Assembly (NCBI GenBank): GCA_964106915.2
Contig: OZ066917.1
Origin: Podarcis gaigeae
Lineage: Eukaryota
DNA: 64,000 bases
Direction: 5' to 3' (one strand)
Below the pieces are notes generated by a model. It was given only the letters and a program-made list of their open reading frames with translations. It ran no database searches and was not told the origin of the DNA. Positions within the stretch are counted from its first letter, which is position 1. The number at the start of each line of letters is the position of its first letter. Of this stretch, positions 27,453 through 49,108 are shown piece after piece. The position numbers were made by a program, and so were the translations under genes.

Positions 27453-27816
27453 CTGCAGCTCTTCCATGCTTTCCTCTGCTCCCTGAAGGATCCTTTCCAA
27501 CAAAAAACCCAGGGGTTTGTGTGCCTGTGCGTGTTTGGGAAAGACTCGGAGATCTGTCCGGGGCAGAAGTGTCCACTTCCAGCCTGCAAGGAGAGAGAAA
27601 GACAGCCTGCGAGCGAGCCTCGGAGCTGAGGAGGAGCAGAGCAGCAGAAAGAGCAGCGGCGGCGGCGAGAGCAGCGCCTTTGGGCGGCCTGGGGCTCCGC
27701 TTCCCCGCGCCGGGCGTCCGGATTCCCGTCTGAAGTTGGCTCCCGCCTTAGCAGCCGCATTGGATCCCAGCGCCTACTGCGAGACTCCGGTCTACAACCC
27801 GGATCTCTGTCCCAAC

Positions 27817-28896
27817 ATGATCGCGGCGCAGGCCAAGCTGGTGTACCACCTCAACAAATACTACAACGAGAAGTGCCAGGCGCGCAAGGCGGCCATCGCC
27901 AAGACCATCCGCGAGGTGTGCAAGGTGGTGTCGGACGTGCTGAAGGAGGTGGAGGTGCAGGAGCCGCGCTTCATCAGCTCCCTCAACGAGATGGACAACC
28001 GCTACGAGGGCCTGGAGGTCATCTCGCCCACCGAGTTCGAGGTGGTGCTCTACCTCAACCAGATGGGCGTCTTCAACTTCGTCGACGACGGCTCGCTGCC
28101 CGGCTGCGCCGTGCTCAAGCTGAGCGACGGACGCAAGCGGAGCATGTCGCTCTGGGTGGAGTTCATCACGGCCTCGGGCTACCTGTCGGCGCGCAAGATC
28201 CGCTCGCGCTTCCAGACGCTGGTGGCGCAGGCCGTGGACAAGTGCAGCTACCGCGACGTGGTGAAGATGGTGGCGGACACCAGCGAGGTCAAGCTGCGCA
28301 TCCGCGACCGCTACGTGGTGCAGATCACGCCCGCCTTCAAGTGCACGGGCATCTGGCCGCGCAGCGCGGCGCACTGGCCGCTGCCGCACATCCCCTGGCC
28401 GGGGCCCAACCGCGTGGCCGAGGTGAAGGCCGAGGGCTTCAACCTGCTCTCCAAGGAGTGCCACTCGCTGGCCGGCAAGCAGAGCTCGGCCGAGAGCGAC
28501 GCCTGGGTGCTGCAGTTCGCCGAGGCCGAGAACCGGCTGCAGATGGGCGGCTGCCGCAAGAAATGCCTCTCCATCCTCAAGACGCTGCGCGATCGCCACC
28601 TCGAGCTGCCCGGCCAGCCGCTCAACAACTACCACATGAAGACTCTGGTGTCGTACGAGTGCGAGAAGCATCCCCGCGAGTCGGACTGGGACGAGTCGTG
28701 CCTGGGCGACCGGCTCAACGGCATCTTGCTGCAGCTCATCTCGTGCCTGCAGTGCAGGCGCTGCCCGCACTACTTCTTGCCCAACTTAGACCTCTTCCAG
28801 GGCAAGCCGCACTCGGCCCTCGAAAACGCGGCCAAACAAACGTGGCGGCTGGCCAGGGAGATCCTCACCAACCCCAAAAGTTTGGAGAAACTTTAG
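27817..28896 (+). CDS. MAB21L1: Mab-21-like protein 1 (cGAS/Mab-21 nucleotidyltransferase-fold developmental regulator), single coding exon, 359 aa
   Basis: ATG at 27817 (cccaacATGa) to TAG at 28894-28896 gives 359 codons, MIAAQAKLVYHLNKYYNEKCQARK...ILTNPKSLEKL. Residues YYNEK, SLNEMDNRY and C-terminal SLEKL match MAB21L1 rather than MAB21L2 (YYTER, SLSEIDARY, SLDKL). Nesting in NBEA agrees with the known NBEA/MAB21L1 arrangement. The ORF-track start at 27517 is a GTG and is not the canonical start. Confidence 0.98.
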   Translation: MIAAQAKLVYHLNKYYNEKCQARKAAIAKTIREVCKVVSDVLKEVEVQEPRFISSLNEMDNRYEGLEVISPTEFEVVLYLNQMGVFNFVDDGSLPGCAVLKLSDGRKRSMSLWVEFITASGYLSARKIRSRFQTLVAQAVDKCSYRDVVKMVADTSEVKLRIRDRYVVQITPAFKCTGIWPRSAAHWPLPHIPWPGPNRVAEVKAEGFNLLSKECHSLAGKQSSAESDAWVLQFAEAENRLQMGGCRKKCLSILKTLRDRHLELPGQPLNNYHMKTLVSYECEKHPRESDWDESCLGDRLNGILLQLISCLQCRRCPHYFLPNLDLFQGKPHSALENAAKQTWRLAREILTNPKSLEKL

Positions 28897-30089: not shown

Positions 30090-31700
30090 CAGGCTAACGC
30101 GGCTGTCCGGTTTTGAACCAAGCTGAAGGCACGCATTACCCAAGTGAGCCTAGTTTGTAACAAAATTAACAACACTTGGAGAGAAGGGAGGGGGAAACTG
30201 CAACGTTCAGAGATTTGCGGGGGTCAGGCCAATAATCGGCAGGTAAAGAATGTTGCTACCTTTGCCCTAAACATCACCAGCCTGGCCATAAAGCCGCCGC
30301 CAGTTGTGTTTGGGGAAAGCGAGCGCCGGCCTCTCCGGAGGCCCCGCCGGAGCAAAGGAGCCGCCTCCGCCAGAAGCCCGGTCCTGCCCTTGCAGAGAGC
30401 GCAGCAGGCAGTTCCTTCCGGATGCAAACCGTGATTCAGCCAAAGGGCAAATATCCCGGCAAGCATTGAGGGGGTGCAACAATGTGCTCAAGATCTGCCC
30501 AGGTGATACTGTTTCAAACTTCAGGGCGCTCTGCCCGCGCTTGGATGCGCTGCAGCAAAACCGTTAGACTCGCCATGTTACCCAACTCCATGTTTTGTTT
30601 TGCTTTGCTTTGCTTTGCTTGCGTGTGTGTTTTAAAATCCGGAAGACACTTTTAATTCTTCCTGTCAAGGTTGGCAGGCGGGCAGCAGACGGATGGCCTC
30701 GACATTGAGGCCACAATAGTGTGTACTTACACAAGGCTAGGAAAGTGAAATTAAAATAACAATATCACTATAGATCCGGAGAGAAGGAAAACGACATGGA
30801 CGTGAACTTTTGAATTCTGTAACAAGGCAAATCTCCGCTCTATCTCCTTGCTCCAGGGGTCTTCGGGAGAGAGTCTGTCTTTGCGCACCCCAACCTTGCT
30901 AGTTCCTACAGGCCCGGGCTGTGCAATTGCTGCTCCGCGCGCCCCTGCAACGCGCACCCGTGCAGAAGCGGAAGCTCCAGTCCCTGGGGACTGCGTCGAA
31001 GGCAGACGGAGAGGGAGCGCGTCTCCTTGTCTGCCGCGGGTGCCCGAGGAAAGAGGCTGGAGTGCGGGCCCGCCATTACCTCGAGGGATTTCCGAGCAAT
31101 TGGCTTAACTGCTAAATCTGCCCACGTTCATACAAAGGCCTTCGGGGGGAAGTGCGGGGGGGAGGAGAGATTTGTTAAAAAGCGAGCGCGGGAGTAAGAG
31201 CGGATTTTACATCATTAACGCGCCGCGCTCTTAAATAAAACAGCCACGGAGTCAGACGAAGGGGGGCGCTTCCAGGCACTTGGGAGCATTCCTCAATTCA
31301 TGGTTATGGGAAACCTCCCCCTCCTCCCCCCAACCCCCCCCCCCAACTTGGTCCTGTACTCACTTTAGGGTCGATCTTTTTGAAGGCCGGGTCTTCCTCG
31401 TCTACCTCGAAGTAGATCTCGGTGGTGGTGATGGAGAGGGTGCCCTTGGCCACCACCACCGGCGCGATGAGCTGGGCCGGCGTGCTGAGGACCACGGGGC
31501 CTGCAAGACAAGACGGAGCGGCGTGAGGAGGCTGCGAAAGAGAGGCCGGCTGCTTTGCCCGACGACAGCAGAGCGGAGCAAGGAAGCCGTCGGACTCAGG
31601 CGAAGGATGCCTACGGAGCGCTGCCGGGACACCTAGGCTTCAGGAAGCGGGACGCTGTGTATGCCTGAACCTCAAAGGATGGTCGACGGACCATCGGAAC
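30090..31700. promoter_or_regulatory. CpG island overlapping the NBEA exon at 31364-31500
   Basis: CpG-rich sequence, and the NBEA exon codons here are GC3-rich. Confidence 0.7.
31364..31500 (-). CDS. NBEA: Neurobeachin internal coding exon (137 nt, phase 1/0), start of the BEACH-type PH domain
   Basis: Translates (G)[45 protein letters not shown]. Acceptor is tgtcttgcag| and donor is AAA|gtgagt. The next expected exon (VLAYTEGLHGKW...) was not found in 1-31363 and presumably lies left of the window. Confidence 0.95.
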
Positions 31701-35180: not shown

Positions 35181-35381
35181 TGATACTTTCCTTACTGTTG
35201 TTTTATGGTCCCTTTCCTATGGAACATGGTGGAATGCCCAAACCGGGAAGTTGCGTTAGATGTAATATTTTAGAATGGAAACCCTTCAAATATTATGTAT
35301 TAACCCCTTCACAACCAGAACCCATCTGTAAGAGAGGAATGGCCAGGGCACAACAACTTCAGAGCTAACTAGATCTATCAC

Positions 35382-35801
35382 TAATGATGTGTGGAAGTGA
35401 GAGCTGGACCCTCAAGAAGGCTGATCGCCGAAGAATTGATGCTTTTGAATTATGGTGCTGGAGGAGACTCTTGAGAGTCCCATGGACTGCAAGAAGATCA
35501 AACCTATGCCTTCTGAAGGAAATCAGCCCTGAGTGCTCACTGGAAGGACAGATTGTGAAGTTGAGGCTCCAATACTTTGGCCACCTCATGAGAAGAGAAG
35601 ACTCCCTGGAAAAGACCCTGATGTTGGGAAAGATGGAGGGCACAAGGAGAAGGGGACGACAGAGGACGAGATGGTTGGACAGTGTTCTCGAAGCTACAAA
35701 CATGAGCCTGACCAAACTGCGGGAGGCAGTGGAAGACAGGAGTGCCTGGCGTGCTCTGGTCCATGGTGTCAACGAAGAGTCGGACACGACTAAACAACAA
35801 C
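35382..35801 (+). mobile_element. Bov-B (RTE) LINE, 5'-truncated 3' end
   Basis: Open frame ESWTLKKADRRRIDAFELWCWRRLLRVPWTARRSN...RRRGRQRTRWLD, with a (CAA)n tail and an 11-bp TSD AGATCTATCAC at 35371-35381 and 35802-35812. Confidence 0.93.
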
Positions 35802-36169
35802 AGATCTATCACATTCACAAGTCACATATATAATATAAACCACAAAAATATTCCACAGAACTACCTGCTCTGGGTCATAAACAGAGTAAATGCTCTGGAA
35901 TGTTAACTTCTGAGCTCGCCTAATTATCTATATCCACCAGTCACACATAGCTAGATGGGTTTCATGCATTAAGCCACCTGCTCAGAAAACAAGTTCCAAT
36001 ACCTCTTCAGGGCTGTAAATGATATTCTAGAAAAATGACATGGAACACCAACTTCTCAGTTAGTCATACTATCCCAGTTTACAGATGGGATTCATTCCAC
36101 AATACACAAAAGGACTAGGGAAACCATGCTCTGAACTCCTGTAATTTGTGCCTAGCTAGGAATTCTTAC

Positions 36170-39800: not shown

Positions 39801-42800
39801 AGAAGCCACGAGGGAGTTCTTCGACATGAGCCCCACTGAATTCCTGGTGCGCATTGCCAGGTATGGATTGTAGCCTAAGGCAGCAGTTCGGGGCACAAGA
39901 CCCACCGAACTCATTGGGAATTACTTCCGGGAAAACAAAGACAGGATTTGTTCTGCTAAAGACGGGAGCACTTTCTCTACAGTGCTCAACAGGATGTGCA
40001 TTGGGAGTGCTGCTGCTCAAGTCCTGCCGCGAATAAATGGAAACGCAGGTTGCACAGAAGTAGCGCTTATTGGATCACTCCCTTTTCCTGTTAATCATTA
40101 GCCCCAATTTTATGTAGCTGCCAGAATAGTGTTTCTAATTTCAGTGAAGGCATTTAAAGCATAAAATAGCTAATAAAGCAACTAAATAGTACCGGACCTC
40201 TTGGTGCTATTGCAATTAAATTCTGCAGATGGCTTTACACATATTAATCCACCAGCATGGCTTTGCAGGGTTTGTTTAAAAAAGAAAGTTTTAACAAGCT
40301 GTTATGTTCCAGTGTAGTATCAAATCATTTAATAAATAGGTAATAAGGATTTTTTATAAAGTTAAAATAATTTAGGCACTTTAGAATCTAATGCTTCTTT
40401 TAACTAAAACAAAAAAAATAAGTTGACCCTGAAAAGACATGTTTTCAGAAGAACAATAAATTTCCAAAATATTAATGAACTTAAGATGTAAGATCAATTT
40501 TTGTCTCTCTAAAAAAGAAGTCAACCTGAAATACTCAATTTCCCCAGATTACTATATTAAAATTGGCATTTAAAAATTGTTCAAGACTAAAAAGAAGACA
40601 GCTGAAGAACAAAATAATTTTCAGAAACAACCCAGATGTGAAGATGTTTCTCCCAAAATGACAAGGTATAGAACTTATGGTCCATTTTCAGATGGGATAC
40701 CTACTGGTGGACTGCCAAACCACATCAAGCACTGTTAACTAGAAGCAATAGGATTTGGTTCTAAATACTGTAAGTAACTTTAAGATCAAGGTGCTATTTA
40801 GTTTAGAATAAACTTTTTAGGGCTCCAGTTGTAACCACACTTAACTGGGAATAAGCCCCACTGAGTAAGATTTCACTCCTGTGCACGGCATGGTTTAGGA
40901 TTATGCTGTAAGTCATTTTGAAAATCTATATATATAACCAGCAAGATTCTAGGCTTACTATACTGTAAAGTGGCAAGAATTAGAAGGGTGGGAGAATGCA
41001 AAGACAGTGTCAATGAACTTGTATAAAAGCCTAATAGCATATTCTTCTACAAGATGTAGACACACAGGGAACAATCTGCCCACTGCACATGTAGTGCTCA
41101 CATAGAGAAGACTGCCATAGGCTCAGAACCGTATTTCTCCCCTCGTCTACAGAAATACATGTGTGAACACAAATGCACAAATGGGATAGTAAGGGGAATC
41201 AAAGGCGCATGTCTGCCTCCTATATCCCCATCTGGCACTTTGTTTTCTGTCAATGTAACTCAGCATGAGAAACATGTATTGGGGCAAAAAAAATGGTTGG
41301 ATGGGATAAGGGAGGTGTGCACAGACCATTAATTCCATATTTGCATTGTCCCAGTATGTGAGGGAGAGAGTGAGAATGGAGACAGGGCTCTACTGAGCCT
41401 TTGGGAATACTCTGTGTGAAGACATAGCGTCCATGGTCTGGATCCCACACTTTGTTTTTATTTTTGCTACTATTATGTACTTACTTGGGAGAATTTCTTG
41501 GAACTATGTTTTATTTGTATCAAATGAAATTAATTGATTCTCAGTATGGTTTGTAAAGCTATGGAAACAAACCAGTTAGATGCTGGAGAATTCCCTTGCT
41601 GTGTGCACAGTATTATTTAAAGAAAAATAGTCAACAAATAAAATAAGTAATATTCACTAACATGTAGTCTGTAAAGTAACGGTTATAGAAAACAATGAAC
41701 TCTAAGCTCATGCAGAAATTCTAAGAATATGTAACACACCACAATTTCACTATTTTTGTTCTTTAATACTAAGATCAAGTGGAATTTGACTTTTGGCTGC
41801 ATAACTGGTGAAATTTAAGTTTTCAAGAACTTATTTCCACCCAAAACTAAAACTAAATGCAAAAACTAAAAGCAAAAACTAAATGTTTCCAGCAACTCTG
41901 TTCCTGACAAACTGGCGAATAAACGGCTTCAAAAATGAATTTATCAGTGATGTACACAATAAAATTAACTGTGCAAAAGTGCAAAAAAAAAAAGACTATT
42001 TAGCATTAAAGGGGAAAATCTACCACATGGTGTATGCATAGTCTAGATGTCAAGAGTAACTTGCATATAAATTCAGGAGCCTGTTATTTCTTCACACTTA
42101 CACATATTGTGTACGTTTACAGAGAAAGCATTTCCTTTCGATATATTTATATTGCTGCAGACATTGGGACATACTTTTGTTATATATACCTGAAGGCATC
42201 TACTGAGTTGTGCTTATTTTAGTAAACTCTGGGTATTTTTCTCCCCTACAGCAAGCTCATATAGTTATTTGCTCATTAAAACAACTTAAATCGTACTGCA
42301 GAGCCAATATACACTATAGTTTTGCCCCATGACACTGTGAAAAATGTTGGTTCTTCCTTTCTAGTGCAGATAAAGTTGAAACAATGCTTTTGAACTGTGC
42401 TAAAAACTAACAGTTCACATGGATTTAACATGGCTGTGGACAAAGTTAAAAGCCCCTCTCATCTGATGCCAGGTGATCATGTATCAGCAATGGCCAAGAA
42501 CTACTTTTAATCATCTGCATCTGGCACAGAAACTGTGACCATTTTGGATAAAGAGTTTCCTATAAGATTCTAGATTTGTTCTTTTGTCCTCTCAACGTTT
42601 CACAGGAACATGAATGAAAAATATACTAATAACGTTTTTGATAAGTGATGATAGATGAGCTAAGGCTGGGCCAGAAAAAATGCAGCTTGCCTGCCAATCA
42701 AATTTCTGTCTTGTGCTTTAGAACTTACACTCCATGGCTGCCTATGGGGTTGCAGATGATAAAGGTACTACTGTCACTTGAAGCAGCCCTAAATGAAGTG

Positions 42801-43182
42801 GTGCATTTGAAAGGTCATTCCACATCTGCTGTATGGTACTAAGCCTGCGATCTTGTGGGGATAAACCCCAGCGAACTCTGTGAGACTTATTTCTGTGTAG
42901 AAATGTATAGGATTGTACTCTTAAGTAAAGACCCCTTACCTCCAATCAGAATATCATATCTGAAAGTGACAGAAATTTTAGATTTTTACTATTAAAGTGA
43001 TGGTGGTGAATTAGTTAGCCACCATCTTCTAAATCATGAACACTTCTAAATTTTAAAATGAATATACCAATTATACATGGCCATGAACTATAGTTAGTTC
43101 AGTCTTAGTCACATAAAATAGTGACTGAAGAAACATGATGAACACATAGTATCTGTATGTGTGTGTATATATATATCTATAT

Positions 43183-43802
43183 ATGCAGGTTTTGGTGTCC
43201 TCGGGTGTCTTCCCGTGTAAAAGTTGGGGTGTCTAGGCGACGTTTCGACGAGGTCTCACTCGTCATCTTCAGGCTGGTGCTTTCGGCTTCTTGTTACTGG
43301 AACAGAGCGGGATCTCAATGTTTGAGTTCCTATAAATACTGTAGAGGGGGTGTGGTGTCTAGCCTCCAATGTTCTGGGCAGAGAGGAAGTTCCCAGGCTA
43401 GTGTGCCTTTTCTTCTTTTGTTCCTTAATTACTTGAGAGATACCTTGAGTGATTTCTTGAGTGATATCCTGAGTACCACTTAGGATATCACTCAAGAAAT
43501 CACTCAAGGTATCTCTCAAGTAATTAAGGAACAAAAGAAGAAAAGGCACACTAGCCTGGGAACTTCCTCTCTGCCCAGAACATTGGAGGCTAGACACCAC
43601 ACCCCCTCTACAGTATTTATAGGAACTCAAACATTGAGATCCCGCTCTGTTCCAGTAACAAGAAGCCGAAAGCACCAGCCTGAAGATGACGAGTGAGACC
43701 TCGTCGAAACGTCGCCTAGACACCCCAACTTTTACACGGGAAGACACCCGAGGACACCAAAACCTGCATTCCTGTACCCGTGAAAATCTACGAAAGCAAA
43801 TA

Positions 43803-43804
<2 letters not shown>
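43183..43804. mobile_element. Penelope-like retroelement remnant: two inverted pseudo-LTR copies plus a short 3' tail, inserted in (TA)n
   Basis: Arms 43183-43470 and 43482-43769 are reverse complements (the ORF track gives the same peptide on both strands). Only the right arm carries an extra ~35-nt tail (tcctgtacccgtgaaaatctacgaaagcaaatatc). TA microsatellite lies on both sides, and each arm holds a hammerhead-like motif typical of PLE termini. Confidence 0.8.
43672..43720 (+). ncRNA. Minimal type I hammerhead ribozyme-like motif (mirror copy on the minus strand at 43232-43280)
   Basis: CUGAAGA (43680-43686), U, stem II GACGAG/ugagac/CUCGUC, GAAAC (43706-43710), GUC (43711-43713). Stem III is reduced to the palindrome ACGU. 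Stem I pairing is weak (CAGC vs GCCU). Confidence 0.6.
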
Positions 43805-43843
<39 letters not shown>

Positions 43844-44589
43844 TTTCATTATAAAACATCCTGAAATAGAACATGGGGGGGGGAATTAAACTGCTGGACA
43901 AAAGCACCTGTCTTTCTATTCTTTATACTATCTTTTCACAGAACCTCTTGGTAAGACTGCCTTTATTATTTAATTTCTGCCATTTTTGCCTCTAAGGAAC
44001 ATTTCAATATATTTTAATGTGGATGTTAGTATCAGAGTACGAAATTGATGCATCATCTCATATAAGAAGGGCTCATGGATGTAGGGATGTCCACTGGCTC
44101 TGTGTGTACCCTAAATAAGGAGACAGATTGAAGTGATTCTGCACTAGCCTCCACCTCATTCAGTCACTGTCCATAAGCAGCCAAGACTTCACTCTTGCAT
44201 CCTATGCTATGTTTCCACCCAGTCAACACAAAGTCACGTATAAAAGTATTTTCAGTGGTTGCCACAACTGAATAGTTCTGCCAGCACAAAAACTTTCAGT
44301 GGCCCAACCGAACTTCCTCACCCTCTCTTCTCCCCATGCACACCCTAAATCTGCTCTGAAGGTGAGTGATCCCTCAGAACAGGGAACTAAATTTCAATGA
44401 GCTAGTGAAACTGTTTAGTTGAATACTGCCCTAGGTTTGGGGGAAATGGCGAACTTCCAGATGTTTTTAATTTGGGCTCATTTTCAACGAATGGAGTTGT
44501 GATGGTAGGGGGAAGGAGAGGCTGGAATGATAGCTTAGTTGATGTTTTCTGAATTGTTTCAAACACCGCATTTTCAAATAGCCCTACAC

Positions 44590-44835
44590 CAGGGGTCAGC
44601 AACCTAAATCCCATAGGCCAGAAGCGGCCCGCGGAGGTCGTTTGACCAGCCCACAAGCTGCCCCTGAACCAGCGCAGCACAGAGCGGGGGCTCGCTTCCG
44701 CGGTGCCAAAAATATTGTCTGCGCATGCACAGACACTGAAAATCGTGAGCACTCACACACGCGCATGATCCGGCTCACAGAGGGATGTCTTTGGGACCGA
44801 TCCAGCCCAGGCAAGATAAACCTTGCTGATCCCTG
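44590..44835. mobile_element. hAT non-autonomous DNA transposon (246 bp)
   Basis: TIR CAGGGGTCAGCAA / TTGCTGATCCCTG with a perfect 8-bp TSD CCCTACAC at 44582-44589 and 44836-44843. Confidence 0.9.
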
Positions 44836-47371
44836 CCCTACACTGAACTAGAGGCCTCTCCAGTCTTCAGGATCGACTTTTAAGAAGTGCAAGGGCTGAA
44901 GCAGGAAAGTGCCAGGAAAGCCCTAGTGGGTACATAGGCCACATCTCTATATCTAAATCTGTGTTGCTAAAAATTGCTGATGCTTGTCCAGAGGAAAAAA
45001 AATTAATTTACAAATCTTCAAACAAAAAAACCAGACAAATATTTCAATCATGTAAATATGCGTAGCCATTTAAGTAATTATCTAAGGAGGAATCACCTAT
45101 TTCCTGCTCTGCTTGCCTTCCCCAATCCCTCCATCTGCCTTCAGGATGGACAGGCCCCACAGCAGTGTGCTAAGCCAGCTGTTCCTGCAGTTCTGTCCTG
45201 CCTTCAAGCTGGAAGCCAGAAAGACAGGAGGGAGCTGGAATCAGATAGAGATGGATGACATCCATCCCTCACTCCTCTCCCTCTGCTAAGAAACGAGACA
45301 GAAACCTCAGATATAACCTGGCACATCACACTACTGTCCCACTTTCTCTTTGGCTGCACAGCAGTGAGCTATAGTTTCCCTAGAACAGAAGCTCTGTTGA
45401 GGCTAGAGGTAAGAGCTAGACACGGATGCAGAAGACACAGAGCGCTGCTTTGCTTGCCACCTCTCAAAACTGTCAGCCACCTGGATAGCAGGCAACAGAG
45501 TGGGAAAGATGAGCGCTCTGAAAAAAATGACACCCAGCACCCAAAGAGGAGGATGGGGGAAGCTAAGTGAATGACTAATGAGACACTTACCTTTTGTGGT
45601 GGCAATACCTATGTGCACACAAGGGGCAAGGGAGCTAGTAAGTGGCAGACACCTGGGATGAGCCTGGGGTGGAATAGACAAAGGCAGGGACGCAATGCCA
45701 CTGCAAGATGGGAGGTGTTTGTGCCACATCTTAATGAGTGCTACAAACAAGCTTGGAAAAGGGCCAACATGCAAGGTACCAGAGAACCAAGAAAGCAATT
45801 TGCATAGGGTAATTACAATGTTGCAGCTTTCTACAGCAAGTATCATACACCTGAATAGTTACTAAATGTTTTTCTTTCTTTATTACGGTATTTCCCAGTA
45901 AATCAACCATTAGACCTTTCCCTAGCCGAAGAAGAGTTTGCAGTCAATTTATGGATTAAAGAAACCAAAAGAATGTTACAGAACCCAGAATCACTTGGGA
46001 GGTGCATCTTAGTGCAGGTGCAGAGTTTCTTATTCAGTCTGCATAGCACACTGTCACCTACCATTTTGTAAAAGAGGGGGGAATCCTTAAAAGATCTACG
46101 CACATGTGTGCAACTGACACAATTCTAAACTTAGGGTTTTGCTTTTAAAGCTCAGAGTGGGTGTACCCTCTGGCACCAGTATGCCAACACAGAGGTACAA
46201 AATGAATTTACTCTCTGCTGGCTCCTATAAATTAGTCCAAAGTATTGCATGGGTGCTTGTGCTGGGAAGGGGGATGAGTGAAAAGGGCAGGTTTGCTACC
46301 TGGGCAGTGGTGCAGACTTGCTTATTGGACAGCAGCTGACCATTTTAAAATGTCACACCTTCATTCTCCCATCTGGAGGAGAAAACAGAATTGTTACGAC
46401 AGGAGAAGACTGATGGGAAGAGATCCTCCTGCCAACTTATTCTGAACAGAACAGGAAAATATGGAGACCAGGCAGAAAAGACTTGGGAAGACAGAGCTTG
46501 TGGTTCGGAAAAATGGGAAGTTTTCTTTTGGGGGATGGGCTGCAGATGGAAGCGTTAACTGGGGGCATCTGGGGGCATGAATTATTGGAGACACTTGGGG
46601 AGTACATGGGCCAGCCAGATTTCCCTGGAAACTCAAAGATGATAGCTTTCCCCCATTTTCCTCTAGCACCTGATATTCAGAGGTACACTGCCCCCTGAAC
46701 ATGAACTTTCCATTTAGCTGTCACAGACAATAGTTGTTCATAACTAATCTTCCACAAATTGATCTTATCATTTTTAAAAGCCTTCTAAGCTAGCAGTCAT
46801 AACATCTGCAGCAGCATATTCTAAAAAGGAAAAAGAATTTTTTCCAGGGTGAAGAAATACTGCTGTGTGAGGCTGCCTGAATTTGTTTTTCCCTCTGGCC
46901 TTTTTTAAACATGAGAAGTTGGATGAGGGGGAGCAATTCAGAGCATGGCATTCAATGGCATTGCAGCAAATCAGTCAAGAGGAGTCATTTTTAGAAGGGG
47001 AAATTATTTGGGGAGGGGGTGTTTGGGGCTCAGACCTCACCTCTGATTTGTATTTGGTGTGTGGTCTTGAGAATTGTTTGTATCCATCTTTTGTCCAGCA
47101 CTCTCTTTCCAACAGTGGCCAGTCAGATGTCCCCCGGGGATCTTGCAAAGAAGGCACAAGCCAACACTATTCCCCAGTGGCTTGTCTTCAGAATCAGGAA
47201 TACTGCCTCAGAACATGTAGGCTTGCTCACATATCATAGTTGATAGGAGATACTTTCATGAGAGAGCAGGGTTGGGAGCCACAGATGGAACCAAGTGGAA
47301 AAGTAGTAGGCCTGGCTCAGCAGAGTGGGACTTGTAACACTCCTGCTTTTTAAGAGATACCAGGAACTCCT

Positions 47372-48972: not shown

Positions 48973-49108
48973 CAGGGTTTCCCAAACTTGGGATTCCAGC
49001 TGTTTTTGGCCTACAATTCCCATCATCCCCAATCACTGGTCCTGCTAGCTAGGGATGATGGGAGTTGTAGTCCAAAAACAGCTGGAGACCCAAGTTGGGG
49101 AAGCACTG
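48973..49108. mobile_element. Palindromic hAT (URR1/Charlie-like) MITE, 136 bp
   Basis: The whole element forms an imperfect hairpin, with an 8-bp TSD GTCTAAGG at 48965-48972 and 49109-49116. Confidence 0.88.

Follow-up and report, generated by a model that had tools for sequence, protein, structure and literature searches.

The 64,000-nucleotide stretch of Podarcis gaigeae DNA analysed here (contig OZ066917.1 of assembly GCA_964106915.2; hereafter, the window) carries a minimal hammerhead ribozyme on both strands within an intron of NBEA. Our preferred reading—to which we assign a probability of roughly 80%—is that this ribozyme comes from a young PLE, that it was doubled by the head-to-head joining of two element ends, that the two arms pair as RNA and are edited, and that any silencing this brings is a by-product. 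The copy in NBEA is an ordinary member of its family with nothing special about it, and both its architecture and the hyper-editing of lizard Penelope elements have already been published. Young, abundant and near-uniform, the family nevertheless provides a good test system for the in vivo role of PLE hammerheads.

On the plus strand, a minimal type I hammerhead extends from C3 to C17 at 43680-43713; its exact mirror lies on the minus strand at 43272-43239, which exon matches identify as the NBEA-sense strand, as the earlier note had proposed. The parts listed there—CUGAAGA, stem II, GAAAC and GUC—are all in place: the core CTGAAGA (43680-43686) is followed by an unpaired T (43687), a 6-bp stem II (43688-43693 with 43700-43705) closed by a loop of 6 nt, GAAAC (43706-43710) and a GTC ending at C43713. 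Cleavage is predicted between 43713 and 43714 in this motif and between 43239 and 43238 in the mirror. The CUGANGA core, the GAAA, the GUC/NUH cut site, the long helix II closed by G10.1-C11.1 and the additional base after A9 are all those of PLE-type hammerheads, as is a palindromic helix III allowing dimer formation, here ACGU. In folding calculations, ACGU forms a self-duplex of 4 bp at -3.1 kcal/mol, making the dimer a predicted possibility, and the closing pair of stem II has a probability of 0.85 in a single arm. The looser pattern CTGANGA..GAAA occurs 13 times within the window. A covariance-model search did not recover the motif: Rfam models run over 40000-47000 at E ≤ 10 returned 16 matches, none of them a hammerhead. 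The microRNA matches among them were dismissed as hairpin artefacts with scores under their gathering thresholds.

Stem I consists of two base pairs (C43679-G43714 and G43678-C43715) with a mismatch beyond, and is thus shorter than the PLE-type helix I of 4-5 bp; its pair probability on folding is 0.002, and folding offered no convincing alternative register. The weakness of stem I had been noticed before and holds, but it is no mark of a decayed copy: identical 8-nt flanks to the left and right of the motif are found in 93 of the 100 copies sampled, and decay specific to the NBEA copy was rejected. Because two base pairs are the state of the family (93/100) and a 2-bp helix I also occurs in Drosophila virilis Penelope, we do not regard the weakness as decay.

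The exact 34-mer is found 6,685 times genome-wide (3,367 on the plus and 3,318 on the minus strand), compared to zero for a reversed control; these copies, together with the reverse transcriptase and GIY-YIG domains of the parent element, confirm the initial identification of a PLE minimal hammerhead. Our family sample comprised the first 100 matches listed, all from contig C1 and so not random, which were grouped as 54 clusters, all of them fetched. These 54 insertions are 99.84% identical over 75,431 aligned bases to L081, a natural full-length copy that serves as our reference and in which +1 is the A of the ATG. L081 is a direct tandem with a unit of 2,965 nt and an ORF of 991 amino acids (region L081:4007-6982), which matches RVT_1 (E 7e-16) and, weakly at its C-terminus, GIY-YIG (E 7e-4, under the curated Pfam cut-off). 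The protein has one cysteine (683) within residues 458-710 and a linker free of any cysteine cluster, as is characteristic of Penelope/Poseidon, while pLTRs from partial tandems, inverted 5′-truncated copies and a tail are the structural marks of EN+ PLEs. The family is a young EN+ retroelement of Penelope/Poseidon type, where the clade name is assigned by domain layout and by likeness to the described Anolis element. We rejected an alternative classification as a non-LTR retrozyme, as the copies here are inverted and come from a coding element, whereas retrozymes are non-coding tandem direct repeats with hammerheads.

The L081 ORF begins at one hammerhead and stops 11 nt into the next, in its loop II, which means that translation passes through the ribozyme in two frames. 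Projected onto the window, the overlap covers 43686-43696 (+), from the start codon in the ribozyme core (43686-43688) to the stop codon of the preceding unit in loop II (43694-43696). The 2,965-nt unit is one open frame throughout with no untranslated spacer, and the hammerhead encodes the last residues of one protein copy together with the first residues of the following one.

With copies of such high identity, the family is too young and uniform to show covariation in helices I and II. Two pattern searches for sister families yielded fewer hits than their controls (1 versus 18 and 43 versus 226). A recurring sister-family candidate was discarded: in the five loci checked, stem II was unconvincing and tblastn against the PLE protein gave no match. 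These loci (L126, L128, L132, L140 and L146) represent an older repeat of ~300 bp, with copies 77-89% alike, that carries CTGA(C/T)GA...GAAACGTC but no good stem II, and that resembles a Sauria SINE.

In the window, two 5′-truncated PLE ends, both delimited by blastn against L081, face one another. The left arm (43183-43484, minus strand) spans element positions -218 to +84, is ~100% identical to L081 and has no tail; the right arm (43482-43803, plus strand) spans -204 to +118 and is tailed. The arms overlap by 3 bp (AGG, 43482-43484) at a head-to-head junction that falls in the element's self-complementary 17-mer (43468-43484). They form a nearly perfect inverted repeat of 292 bp (43183-43474 and 43478-43769), with a single G.T pair (43471/43481) near the centre, and the tail (+85 to +113/118; 43770-43803, plus strand), found in the right arm only, is left unpaired. 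The insertion lies in a (TA)n tract between the two copies of what is probably a 12-bp target-site duplication (43173-43184 and 43800-43811), whose boundaries are made uncertain by low complexity. In another insertion, L002, the left arm shares the -218 end and the right arm starts at -187. At L002, L039, L050, L060 and L071, several insertions are stacked in the same (TA)n tract, which suggests repeated targeting of TA flanks.

The element is intronic in NBEA, which is encoded on the minus strand: it lies upstream of the PH-domain exon (~31361-31501; PDB 1mi1, E 8e-22), and DUF1088 exons directly beyond the right end of the window show that NBEA spans it. At 43612-43623, the element sense strand reads TATTTATAGG, and its antisense reads as a TATA box (TATAAATA); a bidirectional pLTR promoter has been suggested for rotifer Penelope (PMC3846280). 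Elsewhere in the window, there is a MITE-like inverted repeat at 48973-49108 with 57-bp arms that are 88% complementary. An intact intronless ORF at 27487-28896 (+), on the opposite strand within NBEA and in a GC-rich stretch at 26-40 kb, is presumably MAB21L1, as judged from how it reads, and we take a reading-frame fragment at 35365-35833 to belong to a LINE of RTE/BovB type.

The 54 C1 clusters contain 46 inverted junctions, of which 41 pair a short end (~+84) with a tailed end (+108 to +121), four pair like ends and one is unclassed; short/tailed pairing in 41 of 45 departs from even odds with a binomial p of 9e-9. The shortest arms measure tens of bases and the longest nearly 3 kb; 27 of the 46 junctions overlap by 1-5 bases. 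We infer that both ends of a cut (TA)n target would prime reverse transcription, at two sites ~30 nt apart, and that the two cDNAs would then be joined by microhomology. The antisense-first geometry would arise because both target ends are primed, with a +84 end joined to a +113-118 end in 41 of the 45 pairs, and insertion in this manner is likely to have produced the mirror layout as a by-product. The Anolis Poseidon protein is reported to cut and extend both target strands in vitro and to reverse-transcribe from two sites, one of them 111-118 nt into the ORF (PMC11167929).

It is very unlikely that the palindrome instead moves as one non-autonomous unit or results from the snap-back of a single cDNA. 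The position of the junction at a self-complementary 17-mer and the -218 end shared with L002 would fit such an origin, and self-priming on an antisense template is the explanation preferred for head-to-head junctions in PMC3846280. However, the hairpin-crossing strand has its start at +84 while the other arm extends to +118, so the second arm is not a plain copy of the first and plain snap-back is a misfit; moreover, junction positions vary among the 46 inverted junctions, and the right arm of L002 has a different start (-187). Priming from both target ends thus remains our preferred account of how these insertions form.

Any head-to-head pair has antisense-first order by its geometry alone. 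The earlier note had held that the ribozyme is always transcribed after its own antisense, which is true of the NBEA insertion, whichever strand is transcribed, but not of the family: of the 100 copies sampled, 83 have a full antisense ahead of the ribozyme, 16 lack a full antisense partner within the stretch fetched for them and one has antisense only afterwards. The unprotected copies include both ribozymes of full-length L081. Where the antisense arm is present, its effect on the predicted fold is drastic: in equilibrium (not kinetic) folding, the probability of the stem II pair falls from 0.85 to ~1e-21 on either strand, and the whole insert folds at -608 kcal/mol with stem II lost. Sequestration by the antisense arm, as originally envisaged, is therefore supported, both by folding and by strand-specific A>G and T>C changes in family RNA.

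Those changes come from four raw RNA runs from a related species, in which the reads of every family copy run together and have no DNA of the same individual for comparison; X23 and X24 are bulk, stranded runs from one study, X22 is single-cell, and the sense class comprises reads with the first mate on the minus strand. Mapped to the L081 unit, the runs contain transcripts of both strands. Over the last 205 bases of the unit in X23 and X24, A>G mismatches are nearly confined to the sense class and T>C mismatches to the other class, whereas fixed species differences occur in both. In the sense class, A>G was seen at A6 in 14/82 reads (X23) and 40/95 (X24), at A13 in 17/91 and 44/110, at A14 in 34/90 and 55/110, and at A15.1 in 33/90 and 56/109; the corresponding counts for the other class are 0/49 and 0/55, 0/47 and 0/70, 0/44 and 0/72, and 0/44 and 0/70. 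At these core sites, A>G thus affects 17-51% of sense reads (Fisher p 1e-3 to 4e-16), so that at each site some 50% or more of the sense reads carry no edit; A9 is not among the 40 rows shown of the 67 in the mismatch table. Conversely, T>C at U4 occurs in 14/49 (X23) and 21/52 (X24) reads of the other class versus 0/75 and 0/81 of the sense class. In the single-cell run X22, only 1-2 of 24 reads are edited at core sites. Strand-specific A>G together with T>C is the signature expected when both strands of a duplex undergo A-to-I editing, and these data support duplex formation as well as editing for the family in the related species, with reads that are not assignable to the NBEA copy and that fit a hairpin and a sense-antisense duplex equally.

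Genomic sequences bear on whether these mismatches are variants in the DNA. One contig with the same species label as the RNA lacks the A>G and T>C changes, and the copies fetched from the window's genome have no excess of A>G (A>G 8, G>A 12, C>T 17, T>C 21). A search for edited RNA that had become fixed in DNA found none among the alignments L039-L122 with at least four A>G or T>C changes, in a set where picking copies by exact pattern under-samples edited ones. In X24, 12 loose-end reads at L081:6993-7022 have C at nearly every T of the 3′ half of the ribozyme and make up a hyper-edited antisense class.

Hammerhead positions A6, A13 and A15.1 matter for cleavage. So does A14: the A14G change abolishes cleavage by the sTRSV hammerhead (PMC4889925). 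Lizard Penelope is described as massively hyper-edited, at over 40,000 sites, and palindromic repeats as prime ADAR substrates (PMC5625713). In an NBEA read-through transcript, the two arms would pair into a hairpin that would then likely be subject to A-to-I editing, presumably by ADAR acting on the intramolecular duplex. The paired, edited ribozyme would stay unfolded and mutated, and so be kept from cutting, provided that the NBEA copy shares the fate of the family. Sequestration and editing are probably real at the level of the family and most probably a by-product of insertion.

That much of the family RNA is likely to be double-stranded and edited in the ribozyme core would also account simply for the fact that bulk RNA shows no cut ends. 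No pile-up of read ends marks the cut site in X23 or X24, where sense depth stays flat across it (93 to 91 and 111 to 111, respectively), in data of a standard kind that misses cut products that decay fast. A tentative possibility, compatible with our preferred reading, is that the ribozyme nonetheless acts in vivo upon RNA of the element itself, with cut RNA sometimes serving as template. Hand counts from the listings of genomic arm 5′ ends, obtained with patterns that differ in capture efficiency, place 61 ends at +25..+29, including 29 at +29 itself, which directly follows the cut, with 26 among the 52 listed for +30..+34, 26 at +37..+41 and 93 in total at +1..+12. This roughly two-fold step just downstream of the cut, the inclusion of +29 in the junction interval of 21 of 30 fetched loci (although chosen from the +25..+29 window) and the retention of the ribozyme core despite double coding all fit such activity. 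However, the profile, with its uneven capture, has no dominant peak: +20..+24 is as rich (58 of the 95 listed) and -5 (window 43681) richer (25 arm 5′ ends among the first 100 listed of 206), so a hotspot at the cleavage site is not established. Furthermore, 29 copies amount to ~0.4% of the family, and the lack of RNA ends at the cut site in X23 and X24 is matched by a similar report for Anolis (PMC11167929).

Position -5 lies at the 5′ boundary of the ribozyme core, and -4 to -6 is also where several C1 insertions end; the arm-end peak there may reflect a place where the RNA starts or where reverse transcription stops. Two separate tiny palindromes on C1 (L093/L094 and L097/L098) have both arms stopping at +29/+30, the base after the predicted cut. 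In vitro, PLE minimal hammerheads are reported to be uncleaved as monomers and weakly cleaved as dimers (PMC4209133), while the ribozyme of Anolis carolinensis Poseidon (PAc) is reported to need the element protein and to be dispensable for insertion (PMC11167929).

These in vitro reports also weigh on the proposal that the palindrome is a built-in silencing geometry that lets a self-cleaving motif sit in a host pre-mRNA: if monomers are uncleaved and protein is needed, a host intron may need no protection. The proposal was overstated on structural grounds too, as the layout is a known one for PLE insertions and 17 of 100 sampled copies have no preceding full antisense. Its strong form—that the ribozyme can cut host pre-mRNA and that head-to-head intronic copies survive through being neutralised by the antisense arm and by editing—strikes us as unlikely. 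Geometry, folding and the editing of core adenosines are just what selected silencing requires, and tandem hammerhead retrozymes are reported to be under-represented in Xenopus introns after size normalisation. Nevertheless, the same source places 42-44% of retrozyme copies in introns (bioRxiv 10.64898/2026.07.22.740005), the unprotected 17 include both ribozymes of L081, the monomer and protein results recur here as objections, and insertion alone accounts for the head-to-head geometry. Improbable to a like degree is a genome-wide off-switch, in which head-to-head insertion would supply most of the thousands of ribozymes with an antisense guide from birth and host ADAR would then rewrite their catalytic adenosines, deciding which copies stay in genes, with unpaired sense copies purged from introns and paired copies tolerated. 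We therefore keep to the reading in which pairing and editing follow from the way the element inserts.

Insertion of this kind has a counterpart in L1 twin priming, in which both target ends prime, each cDNA is made from a different part of the same RNA and a 5′ inversion is joined by microhomology. Here, by contrast, both cDNAs would copy the same region, from starts ~30 nt apart.

The closest described relative is PAc (PMC11167929), likened to our family by description rather than by sequence identity. Both have a reverse transcriptase followed by a C-terminal GIY-YIG domain, AT-rich targets and an ORF that starts at hammerhead stem II; the cut site lies ~26 nt downstream in PAc and 28 nt from the A here, reverse transcription starts 111-118 nt into the PAc ORF compared with ends at +113-118 here, and neither shows RNA ends at the cut site. 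The available text on PAc contains no count of start-site pairing in inverted insertions and no mention of editing (PMC11167929). Likewise, the available account of hyper-editing in lizard Penelope does not link it to head-to-head structure or to the hammerhead core (PMC5625713), and our literature search, which reached a minority of subscription journals, found nothing tying such editing to either.

The ribozyme itself is that of metazoan PLE minimal hammerheads, with a long helix II, an additional base after A9, G10.1-C11.1 and a palindromic helix III, for which pairs on opposite strands 100-700 bp apart have already been noted (PMC4209133). Its helix I, at 2 bp, falls short of the usual 4-5 bp and matches the D. 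virilis Penelope variant, in which a helix I of 2 bp is accompanied by a helix II of 6 bp and a palindromic loop III of 2 nt (PMC4209133). The insertion as a whole resembles those described for EN+ PLEs, with head-to-head arms, a tail at one end, a target-site duplication, a microsatellite target and microhomology or a palindrome at the junction, and differs from them in that the NBEA arms are only ~300 bp long and lack a direct pLTR repeat (PMC8557442, PMC3846280). The PLE tail has itself been described (PMC8557442, PMC11167929); what we add is a quantification of the one-tail rule, which at 41 of 45 junctions cleanly constrains the mechanism by which inverted PLE insertions arise.
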